Source of the DNA: Biomphalaria pfeifferi
Taxonomy: Eukaryota
Reading direction: 5' to 3'
Length of the DNA stretch: 64,000 nucleotides
Assembly: GCA_030265305.1 (NCBI GenBank)
Contig: JASAOG010000079.1
Span: 365,331 to 429,330 of the forward strand
Shown here: positions 26,095 through 61,170 of the stretch, in pieces
Position numbering within the stretch: the first letter of the stretch is position 1
How the letters are laid out: every line of letters starts with the position of its first letter
Notes under the pieces: generated by a model
What the model was told of the DNA's origin: nothing
Database searches by the model: none
What the model saw: only the letters and a program-made list of their open reading frames with translations
Program-made: the position numbers and the translations under genes

Positions 26095-26117
26095 CTGTTT
26101 CAAAGAAAAAGAAATCA

Positions 26118-30316: not shown

Positions 30317-30434
30317 AGATAAGATAAGAACTGACGATACCAACGTTGATTCCACCAGAATGTGGTAAATAATTACGGAGAGAAAGAGCTAAACGACGAT
30401 GTAATCTTTAGTGTCTTTGAGACTTTATGCCTAC

Positions 30435-34590: not shown

Positions 34591-34840
34591 CAAACTTGGC
34601 ATGTATCCAGGAGATGGATTCGTTCGTTATGTTTGTAGTACCTGCCGTGTTGGGAACACGGGCACTCGGAAGGCGTAACGCAGCTCTTGTTATAGTACAG
34701 TAGACCGTCGGGACAATGACAGCCGGAAATACAGGTAGCTTGTTGCCCAAGACAACCTGGGGGGGATTGTGTTCGACCGCAAGCTGGACGCTGGGAAGGT
34801 CCGCAGTCACTGTAGACCATATTGGCAGGGCACTTCATAT
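34591..34840 (-). CDS. mucin/VWF-like gene exon (TIL domain + start of E module)
   Basis: Acceptor ttttcttacacctatag and donor gtgagt. Encodes MKCPANMVYSDCGPSQRPACGRTQSPPGCLGQQATCISGCHCPDGLLYYNKSCVTPSECPCSQHGRYYKHNERIHLLDTCQV. Phase-2 end completes a Cys codon with the next exon. Confidence 0.85.
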
Positions 34841-34970
34841 CTATAGGTGTAAGAAAACATTAGGTTAGAGAAGGGAAAACTGGACTCTGGGAAGGTCGGC
34901 AGTCACTGTAGACCATATTGGCAGAGCACTTCATATCTATAGGTGTAAGAACACATTAGGTTAGAGAAAG
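34786..34970. repeat. ~90-bp tandem duplication spanning the acceptor and 5' end of TIL exon 34591-34840
   Basis: 34786-34870 and 34876-34970 are ~90% identical. Both contain ctataggtgtaag and the antisense of atatgaagtgc(c/t)ctgccaatatggtctacagtgactgc. Confidence 0.85.
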
Positions 34971-35377: not shown

Positions 35378-36264
35378 CTAAAATACATCATCAAATATCA
35401 TATCAAATTGAATCAGCGACAAAACTCTTAAAGTCATTAAATACCGACATTGCCTGAAAATTATATAACTATAATTTAAACTTCATTAAATTATGTGAAA
35501 GAGGTAACTCTGGACAAAAAAGTGTAATTTTTTCCATCAATGGAATGCATTTAACAGTGTATTTCATCGTGTGTACATGTCTGTTGTATGCTAAAGTTTT
35601 AATTTTACCGTATTACTTGTTTAAAGACATATGGAGTCTTGACTTTTTATAAATATTCATTTAATAAGTATTTTTTTTTATTAATGCAATCAAATATTTT
35701 AATGCCTATATTGTTCTTAATCTCTTTTACTTTTAAATATTGGTTTCATCCTTTATTTCTATTTCATATCGACTGGAATGTGGGAAGCGTGGTCGAGAGG
35801 TTAAGTGCTTGAACTTGGCTTGGCTACCTAGAAGGGGGCTCGAGATTCGACATCCGACTCGGGCAAAGTTGTGTTTACTGATCTCCTAAAGGAAAACCAA
35901 CTGCTGGTTACCCCCTACCCCCCCCCCCCCCCCCAGTGGTCCACAAATGAGATTGGACCAAAGCGCTCTGAGCATGCTATAAGCATGAAAGTAGCGCTAT
36001 ATAAAAGCTATAGTAATAATTATTATTTCGAAATATTTCTTTACATTCAAATTAGTATTACTCCCCTTTCATTCTATTGTCTGGTGTAGCTACTTCCCTT
36101 TCTTTCTATATCTTCTGAAAATTTTCATCACACATTCAGTCAAAAATTCTTAAAAAAAAAAATAAATAAACATCTACATTTAAAAACTAAGAAAGTTGAA
36201 CAGAATCTATTCATCCCTTTTATTTACGTGTACCAGATCTAGCTGTTCTACTACTAGCACTAGT

Positions 36265-36425
36265 TGGATGGCTGCCTGGTCGTGCTGTTTGCGCGCTGGA
36301 CTGTCGTTCAGATTTATCGATGGTCCAGGGTTCAAACCCTGCCCGCTCCCATCCCCCGTCGTCCTGCGGGAGGTTTGGACTAGGAAGTAATTATCTTCAA
36401 CTCTGAAGGAACATCCGAAACATGT
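36265..36425 (+). mobile_element. SINE family B copy
   Basis: Near-identical to 23745-23915 (ggatggctgcctggtcgtgctgtttgcgcgctggactgtcgttcagatttatcgatggtccagggttcaaaccctgcccgctcccatcccccgtcgtcctgcgggaggtttggactaggaagtaa..). Confidence 0.7.
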
Positions 36426-36858
36426 AAAACATTTTACTAACAAACATTTTAGTTTTCATCATTCTAGATCTGCATCAAATAAACACTCATCAAAAAGTCT
36501 TATTAGTAACGGTTTTATAATGCAATGCCTTTTTTTTTAAATTATAGAAAAGGTGATACTAATATGTACACTATATAGGCTTGAAAGTTTTGTGTATGCA
36601 GTGTGCATGGACATGTCCGTTGTCACAATTTACACATATAACTTGAAATAAAAACGTATTTCCTTTACAAAAAAAAATACAAATGTTATTTTTAGCAATT
36701 TGATTTCTAAACACGCTAGTTCCCCCCCCCCCCCCCTTTTCTTTTCGCTTAAGACAATTTCGAACCCCTCTCTTGGGGATACAAAAGGAAACACCTCCTC
36801 TAATGTATATTAATTATTGTGTTTGAAATAAAGGTATAAATCATATCTAGCAAACTAA

Positions 36859-37867: not shown

Positions 37868-38129
37868 CTGCGAAAGGAAGGAAAAAAAAAAGATTTTCCA
37901 CAAGATAAACGATAAGACTAATAGAAGACTAATAGAAGACTAATAGAAGAATTTCAACTTGAGATGTCATTTTGTAAATGGAAAACAAAACCTTCATTAT
38001 AATTAGACACAATTGTTCATGCATGGTGGAAAGCTTAGTGCAAGATAAACATTTACTGTAATTAATAGTAATAGGAATAGACTTCAATACATTCTAACTA
38101 CATTTGAACTGTTAACCAGCTGTATTTGA

Positions 38130-38495
38130 AATGACATTAACTGTGTATTCAAGCACTAAATTTGAATCGTATTATATTTGATCTGAAATTAGTGTGTATT
38201 CAAGCACTACATTTGAACTGATCATTAGCCTGTGCATTCAAGCACTGCATTTGAACTGATCATTAGCAGAGTATTCAAGCACTACATTTGAACTGATCAT
38301 TAGCAGAGTATTCAAGCACTACATTTGAACTGATCATTAGCAGAGTATTCAAGCACTACATTTGAGCTGATTATTAGCAGAGTATTCAAGCACTATATTT
38401 GAACTGATATTAGCAGTGTATTCAAGAACTACATTTGAGCTGATCATTAGCAGAGTATTCAAGCACTACATTTGAGCTGATCATTAGCAGAGTAT
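38130..38495. repeat. ~36-bp satellite (gtattcaagcactacatttgaactgatcattagcaga)n, left part of the array split by the LTR element
   Basis: ~10 tandem copies; the same satellite resumes at 45367. Confidence 0.9.
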
Positions 38496-39190
38496 TGTCA
38501 CGTATTACAAATTGAATTCTACTTTTAAATGGCTTGCCTAGGGGAACGTGACAATAGAAAAAGGTAGTTGTGTCACTTATCTTAAGTCTGAATTTAATCA
38601 GAGACTTACAATGAATAAAAAAAAAATATGACACAAGAAATCGGAAGGTAAAATATCAACTTAATGTTTAATCATAATATAACTCAATACAAAATGGAAG
38701 GGTTGACCAAAACCCTTTTACAAAAATGGCATGTAAAAATATTACAATACAATAGTTTGAAAATATAATTACAAATACAAGCAAGGCCTTGAAAAAAGAA
38801 AAATCTACACGATCAATTGGTATACCACGCACGGGTCACGCAATGTCTCCGCTATTCTGTCTCACGGCTGTCTCCGTATGTCTGTCCGTCAACGTAACGC
38901 GAGCGGTCTTTATATAATCTACCGCGCGTCGATATCGAGTAATTTCTAGAACAGAAAGTCATCAACACCCAGATCTAGAACGCTCTTCAAAGAGACAGAA
39001 GAAAAGAAAAAAAAAACCACCCTCCTTTCAACCAGAGGTACACAGATAGGTCAAGGACCGGTCACTGTCTGTGTGGCTTGACTCTTGAAGAATAAAATAA
39101 AAAAAAACTTATTACACAAAGGGGCAGACAACCTACAGGTCAAGAAAAAAAAACAATAGTATCTAGGCATTGTTACCTAGATACGTAACA
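38496..39190 (-). repeat. 3' LTR of the Gmr1-like element
   Basis: Direct repeat of 44673-45366; preceded on the element strand by the polypurine tract. Confidence 0.9.
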
Positions 39191-39206
39191 CCTCCCTCCT
39201 AAAAAT
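39191..39206 (-). promoter_or_regulatory. Polypurine tract (AGGAGGGAGG) immediately upstream of the 3' LTR
   Basis: Reverse complement of cctccctcctaaaaat abutting the LTR start TGTTACG. Confidence 0.7.
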
Positions 39207-39327
39207 AAAAAGTTTACATTTCCACGAAATGGAAATCTTTTTAGAATAATTACAAAAATGATATTTACATTACAGAATGTATTTATCATGATATATATAA
39301 AAAAAAATATATACATCAAAATACTTT

Positions 39328-42300
39328 TTACAATCTAGATAAGGCATCGGCGATAACATTTTCGCTGCCTTTTATGTGTTTAAGATCTAGGTTGTACTCT
39401 TGTAAAAATAAACTCCACCTGAGAAGTCGTTGATTCTTGCCAGACATTTTGTGGATAAATGTAAGGGGATTGTGGTCAGTAAATACAACCAGTGGCCATC
39501 TGGACCCACTGATATAAAGATCAAAGTGTTGTATAGAAAGAATCAACCCAAGACATTCTTTTTCCACAGTAGAATAATTTCTTTGATGTCTATTAAATTT
39601 CTTGGAAAAGAAACAAATAGGATGCTCTACTTGGAAATTATCTTCTTGGTAAAGGACTGACCCAACACCTGTGTCACTGGCGTCAATAGCTAACCTAAAA
39701 GGTTTTCCGAAATCAGGAGCCATCAAAATGGGGGAGCTAGATAATATCTGCTTAATTTGGTTAAAGGCTTTCTGACATTCATCCGTCCAAGTAAATCGGA
39801 CGTTCTTTCTCAGGAGGTTTGTTAAAGGACTGGCAATGACAGAAAAATTTTCGCAAAATTTTCTATAATATCCAGACATTCCCAAAAATCTTCGGAGTTG
39901 TTTCCGATCAGCAGGAATAGGGAAAGCTTGGATAGCTTCTACTTTGGCCATTACAGGTTTCACCTGGCCTTGTCCTACAATATGGCCTAAGTATTGGATG
40001 GAAGCCTGGCAAAAATCACTCTTACTCAGGTTTACAGTAATTTTTGCATGTAAAAGTTTAGTAAAAAGACAATGCAGTTGTTTACAATGGCTAGAAAAAT
40101 CTTGGCTAAAAATTACTACATCGTCTATGTATGCGTGGCAATTCTCCATGTCAGCAAGCAGGGCATTTATCATTCTCTGGAAAGTGGCAGGAGCATTCTT
40201 CATGCCAAATGGCATCACTTTGTATTGGTACAGACCATCAGGGGTGACAAAGGCGGAGATTTCCTTTGCCCTATCAGTCAGGGGAACCTGCCAATAACCT
40301 GAAAGTAGGTCTATTTTGGTGAAGTACTTAGCTTCACCAATACGATCTATGAGATCGTCTATCCTAGGGATAGGAAACGAATCGGTCTTTGTTACAGCAT
40401 TTACCTTACGGTAGTCTGTACAAAAACGATAAGTCTTGTCCTGTTTAGGTATCAAGACACATGGGGAGCTCCAGCTACTGGAACTTGGTTCAATGAGGTC
40501 ATTTTCAAGCATATACTTGATTTCTGACCTAAGTATGGCAAGTTTTTCAGGGTTGACCCTGTAAGGATGCTGCTTGACTGGAGTAGCCTCGCCAACATCT
40601 ACATCATGCATTATAACATTAGTCTGTTTTGGTACATCAGAAAAAATGTCATTAAATTCATTAATGAGTTTCATGATAACTGGCCTTTCTGTCGAAGACA
40701 GATGAGACAGTTTTACATCCAAATTCTGTAATACAAAAGAATTAGGTATTTTGTATTGTCCAAATTTCTCCTTTACAATATCATCATCAATAGGAGAAAC
40801 ATGGCTATTTGAACAACTTTTGACTGTATTTAAAACACAATTACTCTTCTCTGAGTGATCTGGCCGAGATACATAAGGCTTCAGCATGTTTATGTGACAT
40901 AGCTGAGTCTTTTTCCTACGGTCAGGAGTTTTGATTGTGTAATTGAGGTCACTAATTTTGGTCTCAATTTCATAGGGACCAAAATATCTGGCTTGCAAGG
41001 GTTGACCTGGTATGGGCAAAAATACAAGCACCTGATCCCCGGGAGAAAATTCTCTAACACGGGCCTTTCTATCATACCAGCGTTTCATGCTGGATTGGGT
41101 GTTTTGTAAGTTATTTTTGGCCAGAACACAAGCATCATAAAGTCTAGTTTTAAACTTACTTACATAGTCTAAAAGTCCTTCAGTGGCTGTTGGTGACAAC
41201 AAAGTCTCTTTTATACATTTCAAGGGACCGCGCACCGAATGGCCAAAGACTAAGTCAAAAGGGCTGAATCCCAACGATTCCTGGACGGATTCACGGGTTG
41301 CAAACAGCAGCATGTGGATTCCTTCGTCCCAGTCTTTTTCGTGCTCAAAGCAATAGGTTCGGATCATGTTCTTGAGAGTCTGATGGAATCGCTCAAGAGC
41401 GCCTTGCGACTCGGCATGATACGCACTCGACATGCAGTGTTTGATGCCCAACTGAGTCATGATTTGCTTGAAAAGATTGGCCGTGAAATTCGTTCCTTGG
41501 TCCGATTGGATGGACTTTGGTAGACCAAATAGAGTAAAGAACTTGATTAAGGCCTTTACAATGTTCGATGCTTTTATGTTCCTTAGAGGAATAGCCTCAG
41601 GAAAACGAGTTGAAGCACACATAATGGTCAACAGGTATTGGTTGCCAGCTTTTGTCCTTGGGAGAGGACCAACACAGTCAATAAGTACTCTGCTGAAAGG
41701 TTCTTCAAAGGCTGGAATCGGCTTCAGAGGAGCAACAGGGATCTTTTGATTTGGCTTGCCAACCATCTGACAGGCATGACAGGATCGGCAGTACTGGATG
41801 ACATCTTTCTTCAAACGTGGCCAGAAGAAGTGTGACATAATCTTGTGATATGTCTTGTGGATGCCGAGATGACCTGACATTGGTGTGTCATGAGCCAGAT
41901 TCATGATGTACGCTCGGTATCTTTCTGGTAACACGATTTGATGGCATATTCTCCATTCTTCTTCGTTGGATGCGTCTGGAGGTTTCCATTTCCTGAAGAG
42001 CATATCATCTTGGATGTAGTAGCACGTTGATGCTAGCTCTGCCTCTTGTGATGTCATTGCGGTTTCTCGGAGTTTGGCGAGCTCTGGATCCTTCTTTTGG
42101 TCCTCAATCAACTGTTTTCGAGTTGATGCCGGCTTTTCAGAATTTGGCGTTGGTTCTTCTTCAAGAGAAGCAAAGAATGTGGTGCTCAAGTCCACATCAT
42201 CGTGGTTACTGTTGGCCTTGATGACGTTCTCTTCTTGAGATGCTTTCAACCTCATTGCCCTTGTTACTGCACACGCTGGATATAACTCTAGGTCTTCCTC

Positions 42301-44406
42301 GGGTGTGGCAGATAAGTCGGGTTTTTGAGTGACGATGGGTTCGGCTATCACCTTTCCACCTGCTAAGTCATTGCCTAACAGCAACGAGATGCCTTCCAAT
42401 GGTAATGTTGGTCGGACACCTACAACAACCGGTCCAGTAATGAGATTTGACTTTATGTCGATTAGATGTAGAGGCACATCTATACATCCAAGCTCTACGC
42501 CTCGTAACAGGATGCTCTTCCCAGTCGATGATGATTTTGACAAGGGCAAGATACCCTCTAAAAGTAGCGATTGTGAGGCACCTGTGTCTCTCAAAATGGT
42601 GATAGGTCGTAGACTTGTAGAATCACCGGGTAGTGATACGAATCCTTCCGAAATGAAAGGCTTAAAATCCTCTAATAAAACATCAATTTTGGTTGATGCA
42701 GACTGGACTTGGGTCGAACTCTCGCTGGAGTCATTGACATCTCTAGGAGACGCAGTGGAGAAACTCTTTCTTGAGTCAGTAGAACATCTTTTGGATGTAT
42801 TTGGAGAACTCTTGATGGAGTCATTGGAACATCGGGGTGATGTTTTATGGGAACTCTTGATAGAGTCATGGGAACATCGGGGTGATGTATTATGGGAACT
42901 CTGGATAGAGTCATTGGAACATCGGGGTGATGTATTATGGGAACTCTGGATAGAGTCATTGGAACATCGGGGTGATGTATTATGGGAACTCTGGATAGAG
43001 TCATTGGAACATCGGCTTGATGTATTATGGGAACTCTGGATAGAGTCATTGGAACATCGCTGTGATGTACTAGGTAAACTCTTGTTTGAGTCATTGGAAC
43101 ATCGGCTTGATGTCTTTGAAAAACTCTTGATTGAGTCAATGGAACATCGTAAAGATGAATTTGAAAAACTCTTGTTTGAGTCATTGGAACATCGGCTTGA
43201 TGTATTTGAAAAACTCTTGTTTGAGTCATTGGAACATCGTGGAGACATTTTCGGAGAGTCTTGTACAGTCAATACATTTGAAACAGGTGGTGTCGAGGTA
43301 TTCTTGATATGACTTGATGATGAGGGAGTAAACCTCGCCGACCACTGTACTGTGCAAGCGCTGACTTTTGAAGGAGCTTTTTCGTTTCTCTTCCTCAATT
43401 TCCAGCAATCGTCAATTTTATGGCCTTCTCGTTTGCAGTAGGAACAAGTAGCTTTACTTGTAGTAGGTTTTCTGTCGTTTGTACTGCTGTTCTTGATGGA
43501 GTTGCTAGCAGTGGACTCAGGCTGTTTGACTTGTTTTGGCTTGACATCCGTCGTATACTTGGCAAATTGTTGTGATATTATATAATCGTCTGCCAACACT
43601 GCAGCCTTGTGCACATCTTCCTCGCCACGATCAGCTATATGCGTACGGACGTCCAGCCGCACACAACTCTTGAACTCTTCCATCAGCATTAGGTTCTTGA
43701 ATTTGGCAAAGTCGGTGCCGATTTCCTTGGAAGTGAGCCATTTTTCAAAGCGTCGCTCCTTTTCCCGCAGGAATTCTACATGGGTTTGGCCATCCGATTT
43801 GCGACAATCCCTGAACTGCTTTCGGTAAGCTTCCGGAACAAGTTCATATGCCTTAAGAATTAAGGCCTTAACAACATTATAATCTTTTTGTTGTTCAATG
43901 GTCAAAGAACAAAATACCTCTGCAGCTCTACCAGTCAAAACTGTTTGCAGCAAAGTGGGCCACAAAGTTTCAGGTACATTAAAATTTTTCACAGCAAGTT
44001 CAAATTGTGGAAAATAATTGTCAATTGTGGCTTCATTAAAGCGTGGAATTATTTTCAAAAATTTTGTTGCTTCAGCAGTATGACTGGCAGGGGAAGAATC
44101 TGGTCTTACATTAGCAGCTAACTCTAATTTTCTTAACTCTATTTGTAATTTCATTTCCTTCTCTTTTAAAGCTAACTGGGCTTCTATTTCCATTTGTTTT
44201 AATTTTATCTGAAGTTCTAAATCTGATTTACCCTCATCAGGTCTAAGGGTTTCTAAAAGGTCTTCAGAAAACACTTCCTCGTCTACATAATGGATTACAA
44301 TGTTATCTCTGATTTCTTGTTTAAGGGCATTTGATTTTATTTTTAACCCTAAATGTTTAGAAATAAGGACCAGTTCCTTCCTAGTACAAGCATCAAGCTC
44401 TTCCAC
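39328..44406 (-). CDS. gag-pol polyprotein of the LTR retrotransposon
   Basis: In order: gag CCHC knuckle CSYCKREGHKIDDC; Ser-rich repeats; protease LRDTGASQS; integrase HHCC (HLGIHKTYH...CRSCHACQ), DDE core (LIDCVGPLP, SDQGTNF) and GPY/F (ARYFGPYEI); RT (FGMKNAPATFQRMIN, YIDDVVIFS); RNase H (DASDTGVGSV, TDHNPL, ADALSRL). Integrase lies upstream of RT. Confidence 0.9.
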   Translation of the reverse strand: MEELDACTRKELVLISKHLGLKIKSNALKQEIRDNIVIHYVDEEVFSEDLLETLRPDEGKSDLELQIKLKQMEIEAQLALKEKEMKLQIELRKLELAANVRPDSSPASHTAEATKFLKIIPRFNEATIDNYFPQFELAVKNFNVPETLWPTLLQTVLTGRAAEVFCSLTIEQQKDYNVVKALILKAYELVPEAYRKQFRDCRKSDGQTHVEFLREKERRFEKWLTSKEIGTDFAKFKNLMLMEEFKSCVRLDVRTHIADRGEEDVHKAAVLADDYIISQQFAKYTTDVKPKQVKQPESTASNSIKNSSTNDRKPTTSKATCSYCKREGHKIDDCWKLRKRNEKAPSKVSACTVQWSARFTPSSSSHIKNTSTPPVSNVLTVQDSPKMSPRCSNDSNKSFSNTSSRCSNDSNKSFSNSSLRCSIDSIKSFSKTSSRCSNDSNKSLPSTSQRCSNDSIQSSHNTSSRCSNDSIQSSHNTSPRCSNDSIQSSHNTSPRCSNDSIQSSHNTSPRCSHDSIKSSHKTSPRCSNDSIKSSPNTSKRCSTDSRKSFSTASPRDVNDSSESSTQVQSASTKIDVLLEDFKPFISEGFVSLPGDSTSLRPITILRDTGASQSLLLEGILPLSKSSSTGKSILLRGVELGCIDVPLHLIDIKSNLITGPVVVGVRPTLPLEGISLLLGNDLAGGKVIAEPIVTQKPDLSATPEEDLELYPACAVTRAMRLKASQEENVIKANSNHDDVDLSTTFFASLEEEPTPNSEKPASTRKQLIEDQKKDPELAKLRETAMTSQEAELASTCYYIQDDMLFRKWKPPDASNEEEWRICHQIVLPERYRAYIMNLAHDTPMSGHLGIHKTYHKIMSHFFWPRLKKDVIQYCRSCHACQMVGKPNQKIPVAPLKPIPAFEEPFSRVLIDCVGPLPRTKAGNQYLLTIMCASTRFPEAIPLRNIKASNIVKALIKFFTLFGLPKSIQSDQGTNFTANLFKQIMTQLGIKHCMSSAYHAESQGALERFHQTLKNMIRTYCFEHEKDWDEGIHMLLFATRESVQESLGFSPFDLVFGHSVRGPLKCIKETLLSPTATEGLLDYVSKFKTRLYDACVLAKNNLQNTQSSMKRWYDRKARVREFSPGDQVLVFLPIPGQPLQARYFGPYEIETKISDLNYTIKTPDRRKKTQLCHINMLKPYVSRPDHSEKSNCVLNTVKSCSNSHVSPIDDDIVKEKFGQYKIPNSFVLQNLDVKLSHLSSTERPVIMKLINEFNDIFSDVPKQTNVIMHDVDVGEATPVKQHPYRVNPEKLAILRSEIKYMLENDLIEPSSSSWSSPCVLIPKQDKTYRFCTDYRKVNAVTKTDSFPIPRIDDLIDRIGEAKYFTKIDLLSGYWQVPLTDRAKEISAFVTPDGLYQYKVMPFGMKNAPATFQRMINALLADMENCHAYIDDVVIFSQDFSSHCKQLHCLFTKLLHAKITVNLSKSDFCQASIQYLGHIVGQGQVKPVMAKVEAIQAFPIPADRKQLRRFLGMSGYYRKFCENFSVIASPLTNLLRKNVRFTWTDECQKAFNQIKQILSSSPILMAPDFGKPFRLAIDASDTGVGSVLYQEDNFQVEHPICFFSKKFNRHQRNYSTVEKECLGLILSIQHFDLYISGSRWPLVVFTDHNPLTFIHKMSGKNQRLLRWSLFLQEYNLDLKHIKGSENVIADALSRL
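42780..43270 (-). repeat. 48-bp in-frame tandem repeats (~11 copies) inside the gag-pol ORF
   Basis: Encodes SSRCSNDSNKSFSNT-like 16-aa units between the NC zinc knuckle and protease. The plus-strand ORF 42329-43312 is its antisense shadow. Confidence 0.85.
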
Positions 44407-44645
44407 AGAGGGATTTGCAAGAAAAACCTGAATATCTATGACTAACTAACAACTATTACAAGCAAAAAAATGTATACAATGTAAATATACAGTACAAAAT
44501 CAGTACAACAAAAAAACCTTAAGAGAGTTTGGTCAATACTATTGATACTTTACTTCCGACTCTTTGACACAAAAAAAATTTTTGTTAAAGTCAACTTCGC
44601 CTTTACAAAATTACTCAAGTAAGACGAAAATAGGTTCAGAAAAAT

Positions 44646-44663
44646 ATCCCGGACGAGCCCCCA
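44646..44663 (-). promoter_or_regulatory. Primer binding site complementary to the 3' end of tRNA-Pro (TGGGGGCTCGTCCGGGAT)
   Basis: On the element strand, 9 nt downstream of the 5' LTR end, the 18-mer TGGGGGCTCGTCCGGGAT is complementary to ...ATCCCGGACGAGCCCCCA, the canonical tRNA-Pro 3' end. The identical PBS is used by murine leukaemia virus. Confidence 0.75.
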
Positions 44664-44672
44664 AACTTCTTT

Positions 44673-45366
44673 TGTCACGTATTACAAATTGAATTCTACT
44701 TTTAAATGGCTTGCCTAGGGGAACGTGACAATAGAAAAAGGTAGTTGTGTCACTTATCTTAAGTCTGAATTTAATCAGAGACTTACAATGAATAAAAAAA
44801 AATATGACACAAGAAATCGGAAGGTAAAATATCAACTTAATGTTTAATCATAATATAACTCAATACAAAATGGAAGGGTTGACCAAAACCCTTTTACAAA
44901 AATGGCATGTAAAAATATTACAATACAATAGTTTGAAAATATAATTACAAATACAAGCAAGGCCTTGAAAAAAGAAAAATCTACACGATCAATTGGTATA
45001 CCACGCACGGGTCACGCAATGTCTCCGCTATTCTGTCTCACGGCTGTCTCCGTATGTCTGTCCGTCAACGTAACGCGAGCGGTCTTTATATAATCTACCG
45101 CGCGTCGATATCGAGTAATTTCTAGAACAGAAAGTCATCAACACCCAGATCTAGAACGCTCTTCAAAGAGACAGAAGAAAAGAAAAAAAAAACCACCCTC
45201 CTTTCAACCAGAGGTACACAGATAGGTCAAGGACCGGTCACTGTCTGTGTGGCTTGACTCTTGAAGAATAAAATAAAAAAAAACTTATTACACAAAGGGG
45301 CAGACAACCTACAGGTCAAGAAAAAAAAACAATAGTATCTAGGCATTGTTACCTAGATACGTAACA
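44673..45366 (-). repeat. 5' LTR of the Gmr1-like element
   Basis: Direct repeat of 38496-39190; TG..CA ends; followed on the element strand by the PBS. Confidence 0.9.
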
Positions 45367-45665
45367 GTATTCAAGCACTAGATTTGAACTGATATTAGCA
45401 GTGTATTCAAGCACTACATTGGAACTGATATTAGCGGTGTATTCAAGCACTACATTTGAACTGAATTAGCGGTGTATTCAAGCACTACATTTGAACTGAT
45501 ATTAGCGGTGTATTCAAGCACTACATTTGAGCTGATCATTAGCAGTGTATTCAAGCACTACATTTGAGCTGATATTAGCAGTGTGTTCAAGCACTACATT
45601 TGAGCTGATATTATCAGTGTATTCTAGCACTACATTTGAACTGATATTAGTGGTGTATTCAAGCA
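45367..45665. repeat. Same ~36-bp satellite, right part
   Basis: Array continues exactly where the left part stopped once the element and one GTAT copy are removed. Confidence 0.9.
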
Positions 45666-46072
45666 CTACACATGAATCCCACTTTCAGTGCGTCTTATAC
45701 GAACAGCAGATGAAAAAAACAACAACGTATAACATTTACTTAATTGTTCCAATAGTATACTCATTATTATGCTTAGTTATTTCACTTCGTGTTTTAGGTT
45801 GATCGTACGAAGTCTTGGGTTTAAAACTTTTAGGAAGTAATTCTACATTTTAATGGTATGACACAAATGGAAACATTTAGAATGAATAAGAGTTAGGTGT
45901 GTCATATAAAGGGGACGTTTTTTTTTAAATAATAGCAAAATGCGCCTGGTAAAATAGCTGGATAGAATTATATATTTTAAAACACACTAAAAACAACTAC
46001 AAAGATAAAAACAACTAACAAAAACAATGTAACAATTGAAATACACATAAAAAGAGAGAAATCAAAAGAAAC

Positions 46073-46504: not shown

Positions 46505-46795
46505 TAGAAGGCGCGGTGGCTTGTGGTAAAGCGCTTGGCTTCCGAAACGGGTGTTCCGGGATCGAATTCTTGTGTCTACTGGGATATTTACTTTCGGAAT
46601 CTGTAGGGCGCCTCTGAGTCCACCCTTCTCTAATGGGTACCTGACATTAGTTGGGGAATGGTAAAAGCGTTGGTCGTTGTGCTGACCACATGACACCCTC
46701 GTTAATCGTGGGTCACAGAGTCGGATGACCTTGACATCATCTGCTCCATAGATCACAAGATCTGAAAGAGGATTTATTTTTTTTTTACTTATTGA
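46505..46795 (+). mobile_element. tRNA-derived SINE family A, full-length copy
   Basis: tRNA-like head ggcgcggtggcttgtggtaaagcgcttggcttccgaaac..gggatcgaattc; body ..ctaatgggtacctgac..ggtcgttgtgctgaccacatgacaccctcgttaa..catctgctccatagatcacaagatctgaaag. Confidence 0.75.
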
Positions 46796-46924
46796 ATAGA
46801 AATGTACGTGGTGAATATAGTAGATTATATTTTTAGGACTGGATATAAGGTCGGATAGAGTAATGGCTCTATAGTTTTGTTTTCGTTATGGCAATGTGTT
46901 TAGGAGTTTGATTTTGTTTTTTTT

Positions 46925-47100
46925 TAATGTTTCGGATGTTTCTTCAGAGTTAAAGATAACCTACTTCCTAGTCCAAACCTCCCGCAGGACGACGGGGGAT
47001 GACAGCGGGCAGGGACCAGGTTATGAACCCGAGACCACCAAGACAACCGAACGACAGTCCATCGGGCATACCGCACGACCAGGCAGCCATCCAAGATTTC
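46925..47100 (-). mobile_element. SINE family B copy (minus)
   Basis: Reverse complement of tgtttcggatgtttcttcagagttaaagataacctacttcctagtccaaacctcccgcaggacgacggggga..ggttatgaacccgag... Confidence 0.65.
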
Positions 47101-47596
47101 CTTCTAGCCCTTATGACTCAGAATGGTTTACTTTATTCTGTGTTGGATTACCTTATAGCATTTTGACGTCTCATTGCTACAATGCGTCCAGCTGTCAATC
47201 TTGATGTTGTCCAGTTCTAACAGTGTGATATTACAAGACACAGAAAAAGGCTGGTACACGGCTCCCAGGAAAGTCTGAACAGTGCATAGGGCACCAGCCC
47301 TGCAAGTCAGGTATGGGCCTAGCAGTTGAGACTGACTCATTGGAGAAGGCTGCACTGAAGATTTAAGTACGACCATTTAGGTTTTATTAAAAAATGGAAG
47401 AGCAGAGCTGTTAAGTAAACCTTTAGAATTACGTAAGAAATGTGTGTTTTTGTTAGCTCAAAGTCTACTACAGTAAATGTGTATGTGTGTGTAAAGTGTC
47501 GAATGTGTTGAAAAACATCTCTCTAATTTATAATGTAATGACGTTTCTGTCATGTTGCGATGGTAATCTTAATAATCCAGACGACATGTTATTTAC

Positions 47597-49054
47597 TAGG
47601 GGTGCACCGGATAGTACTTTTTAATATTCGACCGGAGCCAAATATTGAATAGTAAAATTTGATATTCGGAAGCCGGAGCCGAATACTTACATGTCTTGAA
47701 AATAACTTGTGTTATTGAACATTTTGCAAAACTGTTAAATAACATACCTATATTCGTGTTTTTTTTTCCTTTTATATACCTTATTGTTTCAAACTCTGTT
47801 ACTCATTGTTGAATTAATGCTCAGCAGTATTTATAAACAGATAGGTCTAATTAACTAATCTGTGTAGCATGAGTGTGTGTTTATGTACGAGGCCACCAAC
47901 TGTAAAAGGTGTGTGGGGAAAGATCAATATGTAGTGTAATGGATACTTTTTTAGGCCACACCAGCCACCCAGATCTCCACGTGACCCTTCCCCCTTGTGT
48001 CCGCGTAAAGGCAGAACAACTTGGGCACTGTCCATTCTACCGGCATCTCTTGTCACTGTAGTGTCCGTATGTTACTGGACCTACGTCGTCTCCACTCCCT
48101 TTTGTGCCTGGTTCTACACCATGTGTTTACGTAAGGCTGCAGGTCATCACATTTTACTTATTTATATTAGATTGTAATTTTATTTAGTATTCTATATAGA
48201 ATGTTCACTGTCCATCTTGTAAATGTATTTTTACATCAAGTGTTTAGATACTGGCTTTTAAGAAACAGTATATTTGTGAGTGTATAGATTTGTTATATTT
48301 AATTGTAGTTTTTGTCAGGGAAAGGAAAGAGCGAAACTCTTCAAACAATGTGTATATATATATGTTAGTGTTATGTAGCACAACTAGTTGATTTATTTTT
48401 AAAGAACTACGTTGTCATTTATTTTTATACTGTTTGTTGGTGTTCCATATCTCTCATGTGTGTTTGTAAAAGAGATGATTGGGTCACACCATAAGACGTT
48501 CTTGTTGTTTATCGTTAGATCTAGTATTCAGGCCTATTAATTATGTTTAGTTTATGTTCATTTGTAATTATGTGTTTATGTTTGCCTTTGGCAGGTCTTT
48601 AATGTATAATAAACAGTTTGGAATCGTCCTACGAGTTGCCTTCGTCATGTCATTTAGTTTGTTCTGTGCCAAACCCACCACGAATATAAAATATGTAACT
48701 ATATATTTTACTAGTTACTAATGTAAATCTCTTAAAAGTTTGTTTGACGACATTCGACTGTTCCTTTCATAAATTATTAAACTTCTTGTTCGACATCGTT
48801 TAGCCGCGTCGACTAGCCTTTTATGGTTGGCCTTTCGCCTGCAATGTTTCGGTATTTAAATGTTACCTCCATTTGACATCTGAAAAAGAGGAGGCTCCTA
48901 ACAATATTAATAGAAATATAGGTACTACGGTGTAGTTTTTACTATCCGGCTGAGTATTCGGCAGCGATATTCGGCCGAAGCCGATTATCGCCGAATAGTG
49001 AAAAATTGCCGAATATTCGGCCGAAGCCGGTGCGACTATCCGGTGCACCCCCTA
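47597..49054. mobile_element. Non-autonomous hAT-like DNA transposon (1458 bp) with 8-bp TSD
   Basis: TIRs TAGGGGTGCACCGGATAGT (left) and TAGGGGGTGCACCGGATAGT (right, reverse complement). Subterminal ccggagccgaata / attcggccgaagccg repeats. Exact 8-bp direct repeat TTATTTAC at 47589-47596 and 49055-49062. No transposase ORF. Confidence 0.75.
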
Positions 49055-50499
49055 TTATTTACATTATTTGTCCATTATGTTTTCTTCAGCAACATGATAA
49101 TAATTGAAAGGATACCGCATGGTGTCACGCATATAACCCGCGGGTTATACAAGTTATATAAAAACGAATGGGACCTGTGAGGGTATACAATGGTGCGGAG
49201 GTTTACACTTTTTTACTCATAAACATAGCATAACGGAAACTAAGGACATACCTGTGGGTGTATATACCTCCTACAGTTCGCTGTGTGGTTGTGAAATGTA
49301 CATAGGAAGGCTTTATGAACATCTCATTTTAAGCCTCAACAAAACAAATTGTACCGACGCGGCAGAGAATCTCTTATATACATGTGATCAATCGTAACAA
49401 GTAAGTAAGCAACTCAACTCATTTGCCGATACCGGAAATAAAGGCTCTTATTTCACACGCGTAGCACTCAATGCATCACTTGTTGGAACATCCACTGGAG
49501 CATGATCGCGTCTCGAGGGACAGACGTCTGATGAGCAACAATTTAATGTACCGGTAGTCTACTGCAAATCACGCTTTGCATATGCGGGGTATTTAAGGGT
49601 GCGGGTTGAATGATTTTTTAAAAAATAATTATTTTGTAATTTGTCAGGGGTATACGCGTATGTGGGTAATACGCATAAGCGGGATATATGCGCGAAAATA
49701 CGGTTTATATTATTATCACATCCGTCCATTACAACTAACACACCAGCAATCATCAACTAACAAACTTAGCTAAAACATGTAATGCTGTCCAGTGCTGTAT
49801 TTACAGCCTCTATGAAAATGTAATTCTTTCTAAATGAAATAACCGTTTGATATAAATAAAGCCTTTTCCATCAGTATTTTGTTTGCCTAATTAGAGGAAA
49901 AAGACATAAACTGTTTACCTTTAGAGCAGTCCAGGCAGAAGTTACCGTTCTTTGACATTCCCCAAGAGCGCGAGGCATCACGACAACACGACTCGGCGTC
50001 TACGAAAGATTCATTGAGTACTAACTTGCTTCGGCAATGTTTTTTGGCATAGCAGAACTGGTTGCGTTCCTTTCCTGGTGCTGACCCGTCATATAATACA
50101 ACAAGTAAATAAAAAAAAGGGGCTCAACTAAGGGGCAGAACTCAAAATTTACAATGCATAACTAAATACTAAAAGATTTATTTCTCTTTTCGTTATCAAA
50201 CAAAACTAATTAATCACAACTGTTTAATTAACTAATTGTTTTTTTTAATTGATTCATTTTTTTAGTTATAATGAATAGATAATTGTGGAAAGTTTCAACT
50301 TGATCCGAGAATGGGAAGTGGGAGAAATGACGTGCTCAAAGTGTGTACCAGAGTTGATGTAAAAGACAGCAGGCAATTAGCGAACTCACCATTAACATTG
50401 ACTATTATCAGTGTTAGCACTTAGTATCAAGTAACTATGATGATGTTATTCATTGATCATTAAATATCAAACTGATTTGTAATATCGTACTTATAGTTT

Positions 50500-53404: not shown

Positions 53405-53585
53405 TATGGCTGCTTGGTCGTGCGGAATATGCGCTGGACTATCGTTCGGTCGTCTAGAATCTAGATGGTCCAGAGGTTTTACCCTGACCACTGCCCTCCC
53501 ACGTCGTTCTGCGGGAGGTTCGGTCTAGGAAGTAGATTATCTTCAGGCCTGAAGGAACATCCAAAACGTATAAAGCATTACAAAA
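53405..53585 (+). mobile_element. SINE family B copy abutting the 25-bp satellite
   Basis: ggctgcttggtcgtgcggaatatgcgctggactatcgttcggtcgtctagaatctagatggtccagaggttttaccctgaccactgccctcccacgtcgttctgcgggaggttcggtctaggaagtagattatcttcaggcctgaaggaacatccaaaacg. Confidence 0.65.
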
Positions 53586-53587
53586 CG

Positions 53588-56500
53588 AATGGCTTCTTTG
53601 TATAGTCACTAATAGGCTTCTTTGTATAGTCACTATAATGGCTTCTTTGTATAGTCACTATAATGGCTTCTTTGTAAAGTCACTATAATGGCTTCTTTGT
53701 ATAGTCACTATAATGGCTTCTTTGTATAGTCACTATAATGGCTTCTTTGTATAGTCACTATAATGGCTTCTTTGTAAAGTCACTATAATGGCTTCTTTGT
53801 ATAGTCACTATAATGGCTTCTTTGTAAAGTCACTATAATGGCTTCTTTGTAAAGTCACTATAATGGCTTCTTTGTATAGTCACTATAATGGCTTCTTTGT
53901 AAAGTCACTATAATGGCTTCTTTGTAAAGTCACTATAATGGCTTCTTTGTATAGTCACTATAATGGCTTCTTTGTAAAGTCACTATAATGGCTTCTTTGT
54001 AAAGTCACTATAATGGCTTCTTTGTATAGTCACTATAATGGCTTCTTTGTATAGTCACTATAATGGCTTCTTTGTATAGTCACTATAATGGCTTCTTTGT
54101 AAAGTCACTATAATGGCTTCTTTGTAAAGTCACTATAATGGCTTCTTTGTATAGTCACTATAATGGCTTCTTTGTAAAGTCACTATAATGGCTTCTTTGT
54201 AAAGTCACTATAATGGCTTCTTTGTATAGTCACTATAATGGCTTCTTTGTAAAGTCACTATAATGGCTTCTTTGTATAGTCACTATAATGGCTTCTTTGT
54301 ATAGTCACTATAATGGCTTCTTTGTATAGTCACTATAATGGCTTCTTTGTAAAGTCACTATAATGGCTTCTTTGTATAGTCACTATAATGGCTTCTTTGT
54401 AAAGTCACTATAATGGCTTCTTTGTATAGTCACTATAATGGCTTCTTTGTATAGTCACTATAATGGCTTCTTTGTAAAGTCACTATAATGGCTTCTTTGT
54501 AAAGTCACTATAATGGCTTCTTTGTATAGTCACTATAATGGCTTCTTTGTAAAGTCACTATAGTGGCTTCTTTGTATAGTTACTATAATGGCTTCTTTGT
54601 AAAGTCATAATAATGGCTTCTTTGTAAAGTCACTATAATGGCTTCTTTGTATAGTCACTATAATGGCTTCTTTGTATAGTCACTATATATAGTCACTATA
54701 ATGGCTTCTTTGTATAGTCACTATAATGGCTTCTTTGTATAGTCACTATAATGGCTTCTTTGTATAGTCACTTTAATGGCTTCTTTGTATAGTCACTATA
54801 ATGGCTTCTTTGTATAGTCACTATAATGGCTTCTTTGTATAGTCACTATAATGGCTTCTTTGTATAGTCACTATTGTGGCTTCTTTGTATAGTCACTATA
54901 ATAGCTTCTTTTTGTAGTCACTATAATAGCTTGTATAGTCACTATAATGGCTTCTTTGTATAGTCACTATAATGGCTTCTTTGTAAAGTCACTATAATGG
55001 CTTCTTTGTATAGTCACTATAATGGCTTCTTTGTATAGTCACTATAATGGCTTCTTTGTATAGTCACTATAATGGCTTCTTTGTATAGTCACTATAATGG
55101 CTTCTTTGTATAGTCACTATAATGGCTTGTATAGTCACTATAATGGCTTCTTTGTATAGTCACTATTGTGGCTTCTTTGTAAAGTCACTAAATGGCTTCT
55201 TTGTATAGTCACTATAATGGCTTGTATAGTCACTATAATGGCTTCTTTGTATAGTCACTATAATAGCTTCTTTGTATAGTCACTATAATGGCTTGTATAG
55301 TCACTATAATGGCTTCTTTGTATAGTCACTATAATAGCTTCTTTGTATAGTCACTATAATGGCTTGTATAGTCACTATAATGGCTTCTTTGTATAGTCAC
55401 TATAATGGCTTCTTTGTATAGTCACTATAATGGCTTCTTTGTATAGTCACTATAATGGCTTCTTTGTATAGTCACTATAATGGCTTCTTTGTAAAGTCAC
55501 TATAATGGCTTCTTTGTAAAGTCACTATAATGGCTTCTTTGTATAGTCACTATAATGGCTTCTTTGTATAGTCACTATAATGGCTTCTTTGTATAGTCAC
55601 TAAATGGCTTCTTTGTATAGTCACTATAATGGCTTCTTTGTATAGTCACTATAATGGCTTCTTTGTAAAGTCACTATAATGGCTTCTTTGTAAAGTCACT
55701 ATAATGGCTTCTTTGTATAGTCACTTTAATGGCTTCTTTGTATAGTCACTATAATGGCTTCTTTGTATAGTCACTATAATGGCTTCTTTGTATAGTCACT
55801 ATAATGGCTTCTTTGTATAGTCACTATAATGGCTTCTTTGTATAGTCACTATAATGGCTTCTTTGTATAGTCACTATAATGGCTTCTTTGTATAGTCACT
55901 ATAATGGCTTCTTTGTATAGTCACTATAATGTCTTCTTTGTATAGTCACTATAATGGCTTCTTTGTATAGTCACTATAATGGCTTCTTTGTATAGTCACT
56001 ATAATGGCTTCTTTGTATAGTCACTATATATAGTCACTATAATGGCTTCTTTGTATAGTCACTATAATGGCTTCTTTGTATAGTCACTATAATGGCTTCT
56101 TTGTATAGTCACTATAATGGCTTCTTTGTATAGTCACTATAATGGCTTCTTTGTATAGTCACTATAATGGCTTCTTTGTATAGTCACTATAATGGCTTCT
56201 TTGTATAGTCACTATAATGGCTTCTTTGTATAGTCACTATAATGGCTTCTTTGTATAGTCACTATAATGGCTTCTTTGTATAGTCACTATATATAGTCAC
56301 TATAATGGCTTCTTTGTATAGTCACTATAATGGCTTCTTTGTATAGTCACTATAATGGCTTCTTTGTATAGTCACTATAATGGCTTCTTTGTATAGTCAC
56401 TATAATGGCTTCTTTGTATAGTCACTATAATGGCTTCTTTGTATAGTCACTTTAATGGCTTCTTTGTATAGTCACTATAATGGCTTCTTTGTATAGTCAC

Positions 56501-57662
56501 TATAATGGCTTCTTTGTATAGTCACTATAATGGCTTCTTTGTATAGTCACTATTGTGGCTTCTTTGTATAGTCACTATAATAGCTTCTTTTTGTAGTCAC
56601 TATAATAGCTTGTATAGTCACTATAATGGCTTCTTTGTATAGTCACTATAATGGCTTCTTTGTAAAGTCACTATAATGGCTTCTTTGTATAGTCACTATA
56701 ATGGCTTCTTTGTATAGTCACTATAATGGCTTCTTTGTATAGTCACTATAATGGCTTCTTTGTATAGTCACTATAATGGCTTCTTTGTATAGTCACTATA
56801 ATGGCTTGTATAGTCACTATAATGGCTTCTTTGTATAGTCACTATTGTGGCTTCTTTGTATAGTCACTAAATGGCTTCTTTGTATAGTCACTATAATGGC
56901 TTGTATAGTCACTATAATGGCTTCTTTGTATAGTCACTATAATAGCTTCTTTGTATAGTCACTATAATGGCTTGTATAGTCACTATAATGGCTTCTTTGT
57001 ATAGTCACTATAATAGCTTCTTTGTATAGTCACTATAATGGCTTGTATAGTCACTATAATGGCTTCTTTGTATAGTCACTATAAAGGCTTCTTTGTATAG
57101 TCACTATAATAGCTTCTTTTTATAGTCACTATAATTGCTTCTTTGTATAGTCACTATTGTGGCTTCTTTGTATAGTCACTATAATGGCTTGTATAGTCAC
57201 TATAATGGCTTCTTTGTATAGTCACTATAATAGCTTCTTTGTATAGTCACTATAATGGCTTGTATAGTCACTATAATGGCTTCTTTGTATAGTCACTATA
57301 ATAGCTTCTTTGTATAGTCACTATAATGGCTTGTATAGTCACTATAATGGCTTCTTTGTATAGTCACTATAAAGGCTTCTTTGTATAGTCACTATAATAG
57401 CTTCTTTTTATAGTCACTATAATTGCTTCTTTGTATAGTCACTATTGTGGCTTCTTTGTATAGTCACTTAATGGCTTGTATAGTCACTATAATGGCTTCT
57501 TTGTAAAGTCACTATAATGGCTTCTTTGTAAAGTCACTATAATGGCTTCTTTGTATAGTCACTATAATTGCTTCTTTGTATAGTCACTATTGTGGCTTCT
57601 TTGTATAGTCACTTAATGGCTTGTATAGTCACTATAATGGCTTCTTTGTATAGTCACTATAA
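53588..57662. repeat. 25-bp satellite (ggcttctttgtatagtcactataat)n, ~160 copies, with variant units and higher-order blocks
   Basis: Directly visible. Variants include gtaaagt vs gtatagt, 18-bp short units (ggcttgtatagtcac), and cactattgtgg / cactatatatag units that recur in the same order in two ~1-kb blocks. Confidence 0.95.
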
Positions 57663-57769
57663 TGGTATCGGCTTAGGAACAACTCATTGCGATTTTCTAT
57701 CGACTCTAAAGAGATGCAGGCTAGGTCGTAGCAATCTTTCAAATGAATGATTTATTTAGCGTCTCTTTT

Positions 57770-57935
57770 TGGTTCACCCACCTCTAATGGGTACCTGACT
57801 TTAGTTGGGGAAAGTAAAGGCGGTTGGTCGTTGTGCTGGCCACATAACACCCTGCTTGTTGACCGTTGGCTTAAGAAACAGATGACTTTAACATAATCTG
57901 CCCCATAGATCGCAAGGTCTGAAGGGGACACTTTA
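57770..57935 (+). mobile_element. SINE family A, 5'-truncated copy abutting the 25-bp satellite
   Basis: cacccacctctaatgggtacctgactttagttgggg..ggtcgttgtgctggccacataacaccctgcttgttg..atctgccccatagatcgcaaggtctgaagggg. Confidence 0.7.
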
Positions 57936-58698
57936 CTTTACTTTACTTTTGGTTTACAATACAGTAACTCTGCACGGTCTGAAAGCATCGTGTGTCGTGG
58001 CTTTTTGTTTAAATTCAATTTTTTCTAGTTAATAATAGTTTGACTTTCAAAGAATTCGCACTATAGAATCATAAGTTATTTCTGTATAAGATAATAACTG
58101 TGAAAACATGTAATTCTACTTAAAAGTATAATATTAGAGTTTATTTTTTTGTCAAATGTAATATATACGATAAGATAAGACGATAAGATAACACTAACAC
58201 CATCTATGCACACATTTGAGTGTATCTCTCATCTGACTAGAAACTTTAGTCTACACTGTAGTTGTAGAGTAATTTTTATGCTTTTCCTTCTGTCTTTTCT
58301 TCTGTTCCTGCCTGTAATGAAGTGATAACGACTAGACTACCAATACCATGGCTTTATTCGACAAAATCAGACTACAGTAAACAGTGAATGAAACCAGCAC
58401 GTCTCGCATAACACTGATGCAGTACTCTACACACACACACACACTGGACATGAAACAAACACTGGGCATGACCTTCTGACACGCTGGACGCAAGCAGAAA
58501 ATCAACTCAGTTACACTACAATGTATTTAGGGATAGGATACTTTCCTACATTCCAACATCACCTCTACCTCTGTAAAAGTATAGGCCCACCACAAGGATC
58601 AACCCCCTCGCCGTGCACATGCTGCATCGGTAAGCCATCTGTCCGATACCACATTCTCTGTTTCATCTGTGAAGATGAACTACCTGTTACTTCCCCCG

Positions 58699-60793
58699 AA
58701 TTTAGGAAATTTAGGCACCGGATATTTAGGCACCCGGAAATTTAGGCACCCGGATAATTAGGCACTTTTTGACAAGGCGGAAAATTAGGCACCGGAAAAT
58801 TAGGCACTCTTTAATAAGCGATCTTTATTTTGAAAATAATTTTAAAATGTTAACGTATATTTTATCCTTAGGCTATGGGCTATCGGAGACGTTATAATAA
58901 ATAGCAACTATAACGATTCTAGCTAAAGAAAAGCTGACAAAATGTGAAAAAATGACAATCATGAGAATGTGTGGAAAAAATGACTCATGAGTCATTATAT
59001 AATATAGACATCACAGCATTCAGGGAAGGGGAGGTAGAGATGATTCTCCGCTCATTGCTTCCCTCCATCACCAACCCCTACGGTTGACTGGTGAGTTTTT
59101 TCTAAAATTGATGATTATGCAATTTTTGTAAATATTTAGTTACTAATGTAAATACTTAGGATTAAAAAGTATTATAAAATATTTTTATTATGTCGGTGAG
59201 TGTTGGCGATAAATATAATCGCAATCGCCCTCTGCTTGTTTGAAAGGGTGGGTCGTACTTTTAAAATGGGTTGGGCGGGGGGGGGGGGGCGCCCACACTC
59301 ACTTAAATGAGAGGATTTCTCGCAGGTAGATGTAAACTTGGTCGTAAATGTTACGTAGTAACTCTGAAGGCTACACACTGGACTAAAGGGCATGGAAACA
59401 CAAAGGTGTTACAATGGAGGTCTGGGGATTCTATTTTAGAGGCCTTCCAAAACTTTGGTAGAACCATTTCTGTTAAAACCATCATAATATTAATAACAGT
59501 AATAAAAATAATAATATATATAAGGAAAATGAAGATAGTTGAATTTCATTGGGCAGTTTTGGAAGTTAAAGAAACGAGTGTTTTTGTTGTTTTTGTTTTT
59601 TAATCATATATATGTGTGTGTGCGTTTATTAATGTGTGTATGAAACCTTTTTTGTCGTTGTTTTTTTTTTCATTCTGAAGAAAAAAAATTGCATATGGTA
59701 CTGAACACAAAAGGAATGGGGGAATCATGCCTTCTCGAAAATTGAAGTAAATATATTTGGTTTATGATAGAGAAGGCGGGGTTATATTGGAACATCAACA
59801 ATCTTCTATAAGCAGAATAAGTATTAATAAGAGACCAATATTCCAAAAAAATGATATTAAAATTTTTAACTCATCTGTCTTTTCCATAAACTTTTTTTAA
59901 ATTTTCAAAACATATTTTATCGTAATTTCTAGCCGTTTTGCGATTTCTGTTGTAATTTATATAAATATTATATTACATAAATTTACATATATATTCAATA
60001 AAAGTTAATTACCACACTTGAAGGACGTAACACACCTATACACTCACACAATAGATCTTCCTAAAGTGGTTACCCATTAATAATATAAAGAAGGAGTGTT
60101 GATAATAGATATTAATGCTATTATAAAATATGAATAATACTTTAGTTTATCAACATATTTAATTCCTAAAAGTAACGCGCGCAAATCCCTCCTGCTCATT
60201 TCCATTCCCACTATAAGAAGACAATTTTCTCCAGACTTCCATTTTAGCAGTTACGTACAATGGTGTACCCTGCCCTGTACTCCAGTGTGTAGCTTTAAGA
60301 CTCATTACGTCATTTTCACGACCTAGTTCAACATCTACCCGCGATCCCCTCCTTTTAGTGGGAGTGCGTAGATGGGGAAGGGCTAAGGAGGGGAAGCAAT
60401 GAGAAGAGAATCAACTCTACCTCCCCTTCCCTGAATCCTGTGAGGTCTATATTTTATAATGACTATTTAGTCGGGGTCATTTTTTTCCACCCATCCTCAT
60501 GATTGTCATTTTAGCCATTTTGTCAGCTTTTCTTTAGCTAGAATCGTTATAGTTGCTATTTATTATAACGTCTCCGATAGCCCATAGCCTAAGGATGAAT
60601 TATACGTTAACATTTTAACATTATTTTCAAAATAAAGATCGCTTATTAAAGAGTGCCTAATTTTCCGGTGCCTAATTTTCCGCCTTGTCAAAAAGTGCCT
60701 AATTATCCGGGTGCCTAAATTTCCGGGTGCCTAAATATCCGGTGCCTAAATTTCCGGGTGCCTAAATATCCGGTGCCTAAATTTCCAGATACC
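58699..60793. mobile_element. Foldback-like non-autonomous element with ~430-bp inverted arms and subterminal tandem repeats
   Basis: Arms 58699-~59075 and ~60360-60793 are reverse complements (~90% identical). Both ends carry (aaatttaggcacccgg)n subterminal repeats. Flanked by identical 9-mer ACTTCCCCC at 58690-58698 and 60794-60802. Central ~1.28 kb has no convincing ORF. Confidence 0.6.
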
Positions 60794-60819
60794 ACTTCCC
60801 CCACGCCTTGTTATCATAC

Positions 60820-61170
60820 AATGGTGTCAGTGACATACAATGGTGTCAAGTGACATACAATGGTGTCAGCGACATACAATGGTGTCAGCGACATACAATG
60901 GTGTCAGTGACATACAATGGTGTCAGTGACATACAATGGTGTCAGTGACATACAATTGTGTCAGTGACATACAATGGTGTCAGTGACATACAATTGTGTC
61001 AGTGACATACAATGGTGTCAGTGACATACAATGGTACAATGGTGTCAGTGACATACAATGGTATCAGCGACATACATTGATGTCAACGACATGCATTGAT
61101 GTCAGTGACATACAATGATGTCAGTGACATACAATGATGTCAGCGATATACAATGGTGTCAGGAAACATT
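60820..61170. repeat. 21-bp tandem repeat (tgtcagtgacatacaatggtg)n, ~16 copies
   Basis: Directly visible, immediately right of the foldback-like element. Confidence 0.9.

Follow-up and report, generated by a model that had tools for sequence, protein, structure and literature searches.

A non-autonomous, hAT-like transposon copy flanked by a perfect 8-bp target-site duplication in a repeat-rich stretch of Biomphalaria pfeifferi DNA

Ds of maize Ac, the hobo-related hoboVA, the hobo MITEs (miniature inverted-repeat transposable elements) and the BuT2 MITEs (PMC3942097), derivatives of Ac-family hAT elements that are non-autonomous or MITE-like, all combine short, imperfect terminal inverted repeats (TIRs) starting with YAG with an 8-bp target-site duplication (TSD). 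hAT elements at large have 8-bp TSDs and TIRs of 10-25 bp (PMC3942097), and the 8-bp TSD has been used as a hAT criterion elsewhere too (PMC3517528). Hermes of Musca domestica is autonomous, with a 612-aa transposase and imperfect 17-bp TIRs. Its preferred target is 5'-nTnnnnAn-3', and its transposition requires short subterminal repeats, AAG(T/C), that are arranged asymmetrically between the ends and to which its BED domains bind (PMC10368747). Drosophila willistoni has a Buster-family hAT MITE, Mar, which is non-coding and 610 bp long, with 11-bp TIRs and 8-bp TSDs that follow the Buster-family target consensus nnnTAnnn (PMC3517528). Here, an element of this already known kind is described from a 64-kb stretch of Biomphalaria pfeifferi DNA (GenBank assembly GCA_030265305.1, contig JASAOG010000079.1, positions 365,331 to 429,330; hereafter the window, with 1-based coordinates). 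Judged from its structure, it probably belongs to the hAT superfamily of class II (cut-and-paste) DNA transposons as a non-autonomous member, with a target choice that appears to resemble that of Ac, hobo and Hermes. A preliminary description had called it hAT-like and non-autonomous and had noted its perfect 8-bp TSD; that reading came through every structural test that could be run, and a family with the same terminus was found elsewhere.

Termini, arms and interior

Reading the region 47400-49300 base by base gave the following features.

47589-47596, no strand: left TSD TTATTTAC, the same as 49055-49062 and adjoining the TIR; its T2 and A7 fit nTnnnnAn
47597-47615, plus strand: left TIR TAGGGGTGCACCGGATAGT, 19 nt
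47616-47690, plus strand: left subterminal region, with TATTCG at 47625 and 47663, CGAATA at 47680 and CCGGAGCC at 47632 and 47673
47691-48940, no strand: non-coding interior, with no open reading frame (ORF) above 69 aa, no Pfam or Rfam match and no second copy of any part of it in the window
48941-49034, minus strand: right subterminal region, with TATTCG/CGAATA at 48955, 48968, 48992, 49010 and 49014
49035-49054, minus strand: right TIR, reverse complement TAGGGGGTGCACCGGATAGT, 20 nt, with one added G
49055-49062, no strand: right TSD TTATTTAC, adjoining the right TIR

The layout is thus GACGACATG-TTATTTAC-TAGGGGTGCACCGGATAGT…ACTATCCGGTGCACCCCCTA-TTATTTAC-ATTATTTG. The two copies of TTATTTAC are identical at 8 of 8 positions, and because the bases adjoining them differ (G versus A before, T versus A after) the direct repeat is exactly 8 bp. 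From TIR tip to TIR tip the element spans 1458 bp (49054-47597+1), the length first proposed for it. The TIRs, previously put at 19-20 bp with one indel, agree at 19 of 20 positions with a single surplus G in the right arm; both begin with TAGGG, and similarity between the arms ends after GATAGT. An empty, pre-insertion allele would be expected to read …GACGACATG TTATTTAC ATTATTTGTCC….

An inverted repeat and a flanking direct repeat might have come together by chance, with no transposon involved, and the single copy within the window would suit such an origin, but its probability is negligible. The TIR 19-mer matches the window twice, in inverted orientation, and was absent from each of 100 dinucleotide shuffles, which answers the concern, raised in the preliminary description, that the TIR match might be no better than chance. 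Per window, the expected number of exact 17-nt inverted pairs lying within 8 kb of each other is about 0.03, a figure to be multiplied by the 2.8e-5 probability, at window base composition, of an 8/8 flank match. When the whole window was scanned for exact 11-nt inverted seeds within 8 kb flanked by a perfect 8-bp repeat, this element and one (AT)n microsatellite artefact were the only structures recovered; block-shuffled windows held 0-1 such structures each, with far shorter (minimal) seeds. Taken with the motif enrichment in the arms (P = 5e-15) and the multi-copy family elsewhere that terminates in the identical 19-mer, both described below, these values led to the rejection of a chance origin.

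The subterminal repeats reported earlier on both arms stand out by their distribution. Eight of the 21 copies of TATTCG/CGAATA in the window fall within the terminal 230 nt, a clustering with a binomial P of 5e-15, while all three occurrences of CCGGATAGT, and all three of ATATTCGGCCGAAGCCG or a close variant, lie within the arms. These repeats are short and partly palindromic (TATTCGG/CCGAATA and CCGGATAGT). In the right arm, ACTATCCGG is also found a second time internally (48941-48949), alongside a pair of identical ATATTCGGCCGAAGCCG units (48967-48983 and 49013-49029) and the 14-nt palindrome GCCGAATATTCGGC (49008-49021). In Ac, Tol2 and Hermes, subterminal repeats are the binding sites of the transposase. 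Hermes shares with this element imperfect TIRs of similar length (17 bp there, 19/20 here), the 8-bp TSD and short subterminal repeats concentrated near the tips that are asymmetric between the ends and include a quasi-palindromic pair, and its nTnnnnAn preference fits the T2 and A7 of this copy. However, its repeats are AAG(T/C) instead of TATTCGG/CCGAATA and CCGGATAGT, to which a BED domain would presumably bind here.

Unlike Hermes, the element encodes no transposase: as the preliminary description held, it has no ORF of transposase length, the longest being 69 aa, and its six-frame translation matches nothing in Pfam even at E<=10. No Rfam family was found in the whole window, and blastn against phage sequences gave no match, as expected. 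The copy has no detectable host function. No further copy in the window came to light in a TIR search tolerating up to 3 mismatches or in blastn searches with the element and with 1 kb of flank on either side, and since the immediate flanks are unique, the window holds no paralogous empty site.

Compared by structure only, the element resembles the Ac-family derivatives in its conserved ends with subterminal repeats, its non-coding interior and its presumed mobilisation in trans. At 1458 bp it exceeds typical MITEs and falls outside the strict sense of that term (under ~800 bp, high copy number), so 'non-autonomous element' is the better label. Mar is likewise non-coding with an 8-bp TSD, and its TIR begins CAG(G/A)GGT, which resembles TAGGGGT here, but it is shorter in both element and TIRs, and its TSDs carry TA at positions 4-5 where this element has TT.

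A family with the same terminus on JGI contigs

Scans with the 17-mer common to both TIRs returned 34 metagenome contigs, 20 prokaryote-genome matches and 2 viral matches. Most of the metagenome matches and all of the prokaryote and viral ones were discarded as chance matches in GC-rich bacterial DNA. A gapped pattern of the TIR plus TATTCG had 0 matches in the metagenome and prokaryote-genome collections. The genuine relatives are 14 short contigs of one Joint Genome Institute (JGI) series, Ga0314668-Ga0314711 (loci L008, L009, L011, L013, L015, L019, L020, L026, L027, L029, L030, L031, L032 and L035). The full 19-nt TAGGGGTGCACCGGATAGT is present in 13 of them, L015 having TT for TA. The relatives fall into two non-coding subfamilies, of ~0.9 kb and ~0.26 kb, represented by these loci.

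L026, contig Ga0314689_10017669, 445-1326: ~0.9-kb non-coding element
L032, contig Ga0314709_10082088, 171-1075: ~0.9-kb non-coding element
L008, contig Ga0314697_10133662, 511-768: ~0.26-kb non-coding element

Upstream of TAG the contigs carry unrelated sequence, with nine different contexts among the 14, and in pairwise blastn comparisons their homology sets in precisely at the TIR. The two complete ~0.9-kb copies (L026 and L032) are 94.4% identical from TIR to TIR and unrelated outside. Flanks that diverge at TAG and homology bounded by the TIRs indicate that the terminus belongs to a mobile family, a pattern seen among the related contigs but not within the window. The L026 flanks, ATTTAAGT and ATTTTAAT, match at 6 of 8 positions (P about 0.006), which fits a second, decayed 8-bp TSD.

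These flanks also bear on a different reading of the ends, in which the element would be of Tc1/mariner type, its TIR starting from GGGGTGCACC and its TSD being the flanking TA, with TTATTTAC a coincidence. TA does stand directly before GGGG at both ends and in 13 of the 14 related contigs. Such an origin is nevertheless very improbable, leaving unexplained both the perfect 8-bp repeat outside the two TAs (P = 2.8e-5) and the 6/8 repeat that L026 has beyond its TAs, and the six-frame Pfam search found no mariner or Tc1 domain in the element. A TSD consisting of TA only was rejected, given the perfect 8-bp repeat beyond it.

Across six aligned termini the core GGG.TGCACCGGATA is invariant. Elements L008, L029 and L030 have at their right ends the same run of five G residues (G5) as the right TIR in the window, so that the TIR indel (G4 versus G5) is an asymmetry of the family and neither decay nor a clock. 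The L026 right arm holds ACTATCCGGTATTCGGCCGG, close to the window's ACTATCCGGCTGAGTATTCGGC, and repeats the arrangement of ACTATCCGG and TATTCGGC found in the window's right arm; the subterminal motifs ACTATCCGG and TATTCGGC(CG) are thus common to both, as is the identical 19-nt left TIR. The main subterminal unit of the JGI family, however, is the palindrome TATCCTGCAGGATA, its sizes differ (~0.26 and 0.9 kb), and blastn of the window element against the relatives shows no similarity past the termini.

Contig L011 contains an uninterrupted 621-aa CLPTM1 ORF, 78% identical to that of Amphibalanus amphitrite and 86% (partial) to that of Pollicipes pollicipes, and on this ground the related contigs look like barnacle transcripts. 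The related element in L011 lies at the 3' end of what appears to be a CLPTM1 mRNA. GC content at third codon positions is 0.80 for this ORF versus 0.39 for the exons of the window, a very different codon usage, and the hosts of the window and of the JGI contigs are probably different organisms. A literature search for the TIR as a string returned unrelated primers only, and one on barnacle hAT elements had no relevant match.

Superfamily assignment and target choice

The TIR consensus of hAT elements is reportedly 5'-(T/C)A(A/G)NG (Kempken & Windhofer 2001; Rubin et al. 2001), and both ends of the element start with TAGGG. Three further hAT hallmarks are present as well, namely a TSD of exactly 8 bp on both sides (TTATTTAC), short and often imperfect TIRs (about 10-25 bp; here 19/20 nt) and short subterminal repeats in both arms. 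The preliminary description called the 8-bp TSD and the YARNG start diagnostic. They are characteristic of hAT but not strictly diagnostic, since 8-bp TSDs are also made by P, some Mutator-like, Merlin, Zisupton and Novosib elements.

The element could accordingly be a non-autonomous member of another such superfamily (P, 8-9-bp Mutator-like, Merlin, Zisupton or Novosib), mobilised in trans. No transposase was found, the tests having covered the subterminal repeats, the length of the TSD and both the length and the sequence of the TIRs. The window also has an element with long TIRs and a 9-bp repeat at its flanks (58691-60802, described below), which indicates that this genome has further TIR superfamilies. 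Of the superfamilies named above, P elements end in CATG, Merlin elements in GG, and Mutator-like elements (MULEs) in G-rich, long TIRs; the TAGGG terminus fits the hAT YARNG and none of the three. In addition, the 19-20-nt TIR is inside the hAT range (PMC3942097), and the T2/A7 target pattern fits Hermes and Ac (PMC10368747). Membership of another superfamily is therefore unlikely, although clearly less so than a Tc1/mariner origin.

Target choice was examined in this copy (T2, A7 and TT at positions 4-5) and in ten left flanks of the related family, a small sample in which seven of the ten have T2, five have A7 and a single one has TA at positions 4-5. On these ten flanks the choice appears Ac-like rather than Buster-like, and placement in the Buster family was set aside as less likely, given TT at positions 4-5 here and TA there in one of ten family flanks.

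Several points weigh against assignment to hAT. No transposase is linked to these ends, whether in the element, among the window ORFs of at least 110 aa or in the 14 related contigs (the six-frame Pfam search of L026 is blank at E<=10), and the metagenome and prokaryote collections scanned for the TIR contained no contig bearing one; superfamily membership is thus argued from structure. The window itself holds one copy only in its 64 kb; L032, the second complete relative, shows no TSD; and the target logo was built on 10 flanks. To these is added the point made above, that 8-bp TSDs are not exclusive to hAT. A hAT element remains the probable identity, and what the window contains is a genuine, ordinary non-autonomous hAT-like copy.

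Surroundings, age and significance

The window is eukaryotic, about 36% GC, CpG-depleted (observed/expected 0.60) and repeat-rich. The element lies ~12.7 kb past the last exon that could be recognised in a mucin/IgGFc-binding-like gene on the minus strand, in a region rich in transposable elements, at a position that may be either an upstream intron or intergenic. Collinear minus-strand ORFs between 5464 and 34859, listed here, look like the parts of that gene.

34590-34859 and 25844-26119, minus strand: TIL exon-like ORFs
30411-30689 and 17530-17835, minus strand: VWD exon-like ORFs
9071-9292, minus strand: LDL-receptor class A exon-like ORF
5464-8298, minus strand: T/E-rich tandem-repeat ORF of 944 aa with a 45-nt period, following the domain exons

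One TIL exon has its best matches, at 47-48% identity, in Bulinus truncatus and Physella acuta, both freshwater snails, which hints weakly at a molluscan host; the concatenated exons, used as one query, had no match.

Between this gene and the hAT-like element sits a complete Gypsy long terminal repeat (LTR) retrotransposon (38124-45685). Its LTRs (38124-39190 and 44672-45685) are 99.86% identical over 696 nt and each contains a 36/37-nt tandem array; its 1692-aa gag-pol ORF (39328-44406, minus strand) is intact, with a pol whose closest relative in the protein collections, at 67% identity, comes from a freshwater metagenome. This Gypsy element is very young. Further downstream, a second TIR element of ~2.1 kb (58691-60802) has arms (58705-59063 versus 60391-60755) that are about 95% identical over ~360 nt, with 15/16-nt tandem units GGAAATTTAGGCACC(C) in the outer arms. 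A 9-bp direct repeat, ACTTCCCCC, 5-7 nt outside each of these long arms suggests that the element may be MULE- or foldback-like. Its tandem units contain GCACCGGATA, a 10-mer that also occurs in the TIR of the hAT-like element (p about 0.04 by chance).

Other repeats of the window include a 4-kb satellite (53588-57665) of ~165 copies of the 25-nt unit AATGGCTTCTTTGTATAGTCACTAT, and tandem arrays of 40-nt (21182-22447) and 19-nt (60815-61162) units. A ~170-nt repeat occurs in five copies, 75-84% identical and in both orientations (46922-47094, 36264-36429, 23749-23912, 53406-53585 and 11891-12054), and looks like a short interspersed nuclear element or a MITE; a second repeat measures ~180 nt (46606-46784, 9967-10146 and 57772-57923). 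Near-identical reverse-transcriptase fragments of one non-LTR (long interspersed nuclear element, LINE) family, at 709-1344, 24804-25673 and 28686-30147, suggest a recently active LINE.

If the element is of the hAT type, its mobilisation may be pictured after the paradigm of Hermes, Ac and Tol2. A related autonomous element would supply transposase in trans, which would bind the TIRs via its catalytic and insertion domains and the subterminal repeats via its N-terminal BED zinc finger, and the two ends would be synapsed. The element would then be cut out of its donor site and its 3'-OH ends joined to the target strands with an 8-bp stagger, after which gap repair would yield the TTATTTAC duplication.

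The preliminary description took the perfect TSD and well-matched TIRs as signs of a relatively recent mobilisation, which would imply an autonomous partner elsewhere in the genome. The 8/8 TSD bounds the divergence between its copies below about 31% (5% level). The CpG observed/expected ratio is 1.5-1.7 in the arms (20 CpGs kept) versus 0.60 in the window, which mildly favours youth or a lack of methylation. Recent mobilisation of this copy is weakly supported. This genome may hold a living autonomous partner, or that partner may be extinct; among ORFs of at least 110 aa, none was found within the window.

For the annotation of this genome the outcome is routine: the copy is to be masked and filed as hAT-like, and its TIR and arms provide a clean seed for a family model and for tracing the autonomous partner. 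Its one slightly unusual aspect is that two invertebrate genomes with no apparent relationship carry an identical TIR. Horizontal transfer of DNA transposons among invertebrates is a known pattern (e.g. PMC4298943), and the identical 19-nt TIR, the G4/G5 asymmetry, ACTATCCGG and TATTCGGC in two hosts would point in that direction. It is conceivable, if rather unlikely, that one hAT-like lineage reached two distantly related marine or aquatic invertebrates, one with the AT-rich genome of the window and the other a barnacle-like crustacean, by horizontal transfer of an autonomous element between phyla, with each host making its own non-autonomous derivatives. If true, and given a molluscan host for the window, this would be one more case of the horizontal transfer of a DNA transposon among invertebrates.

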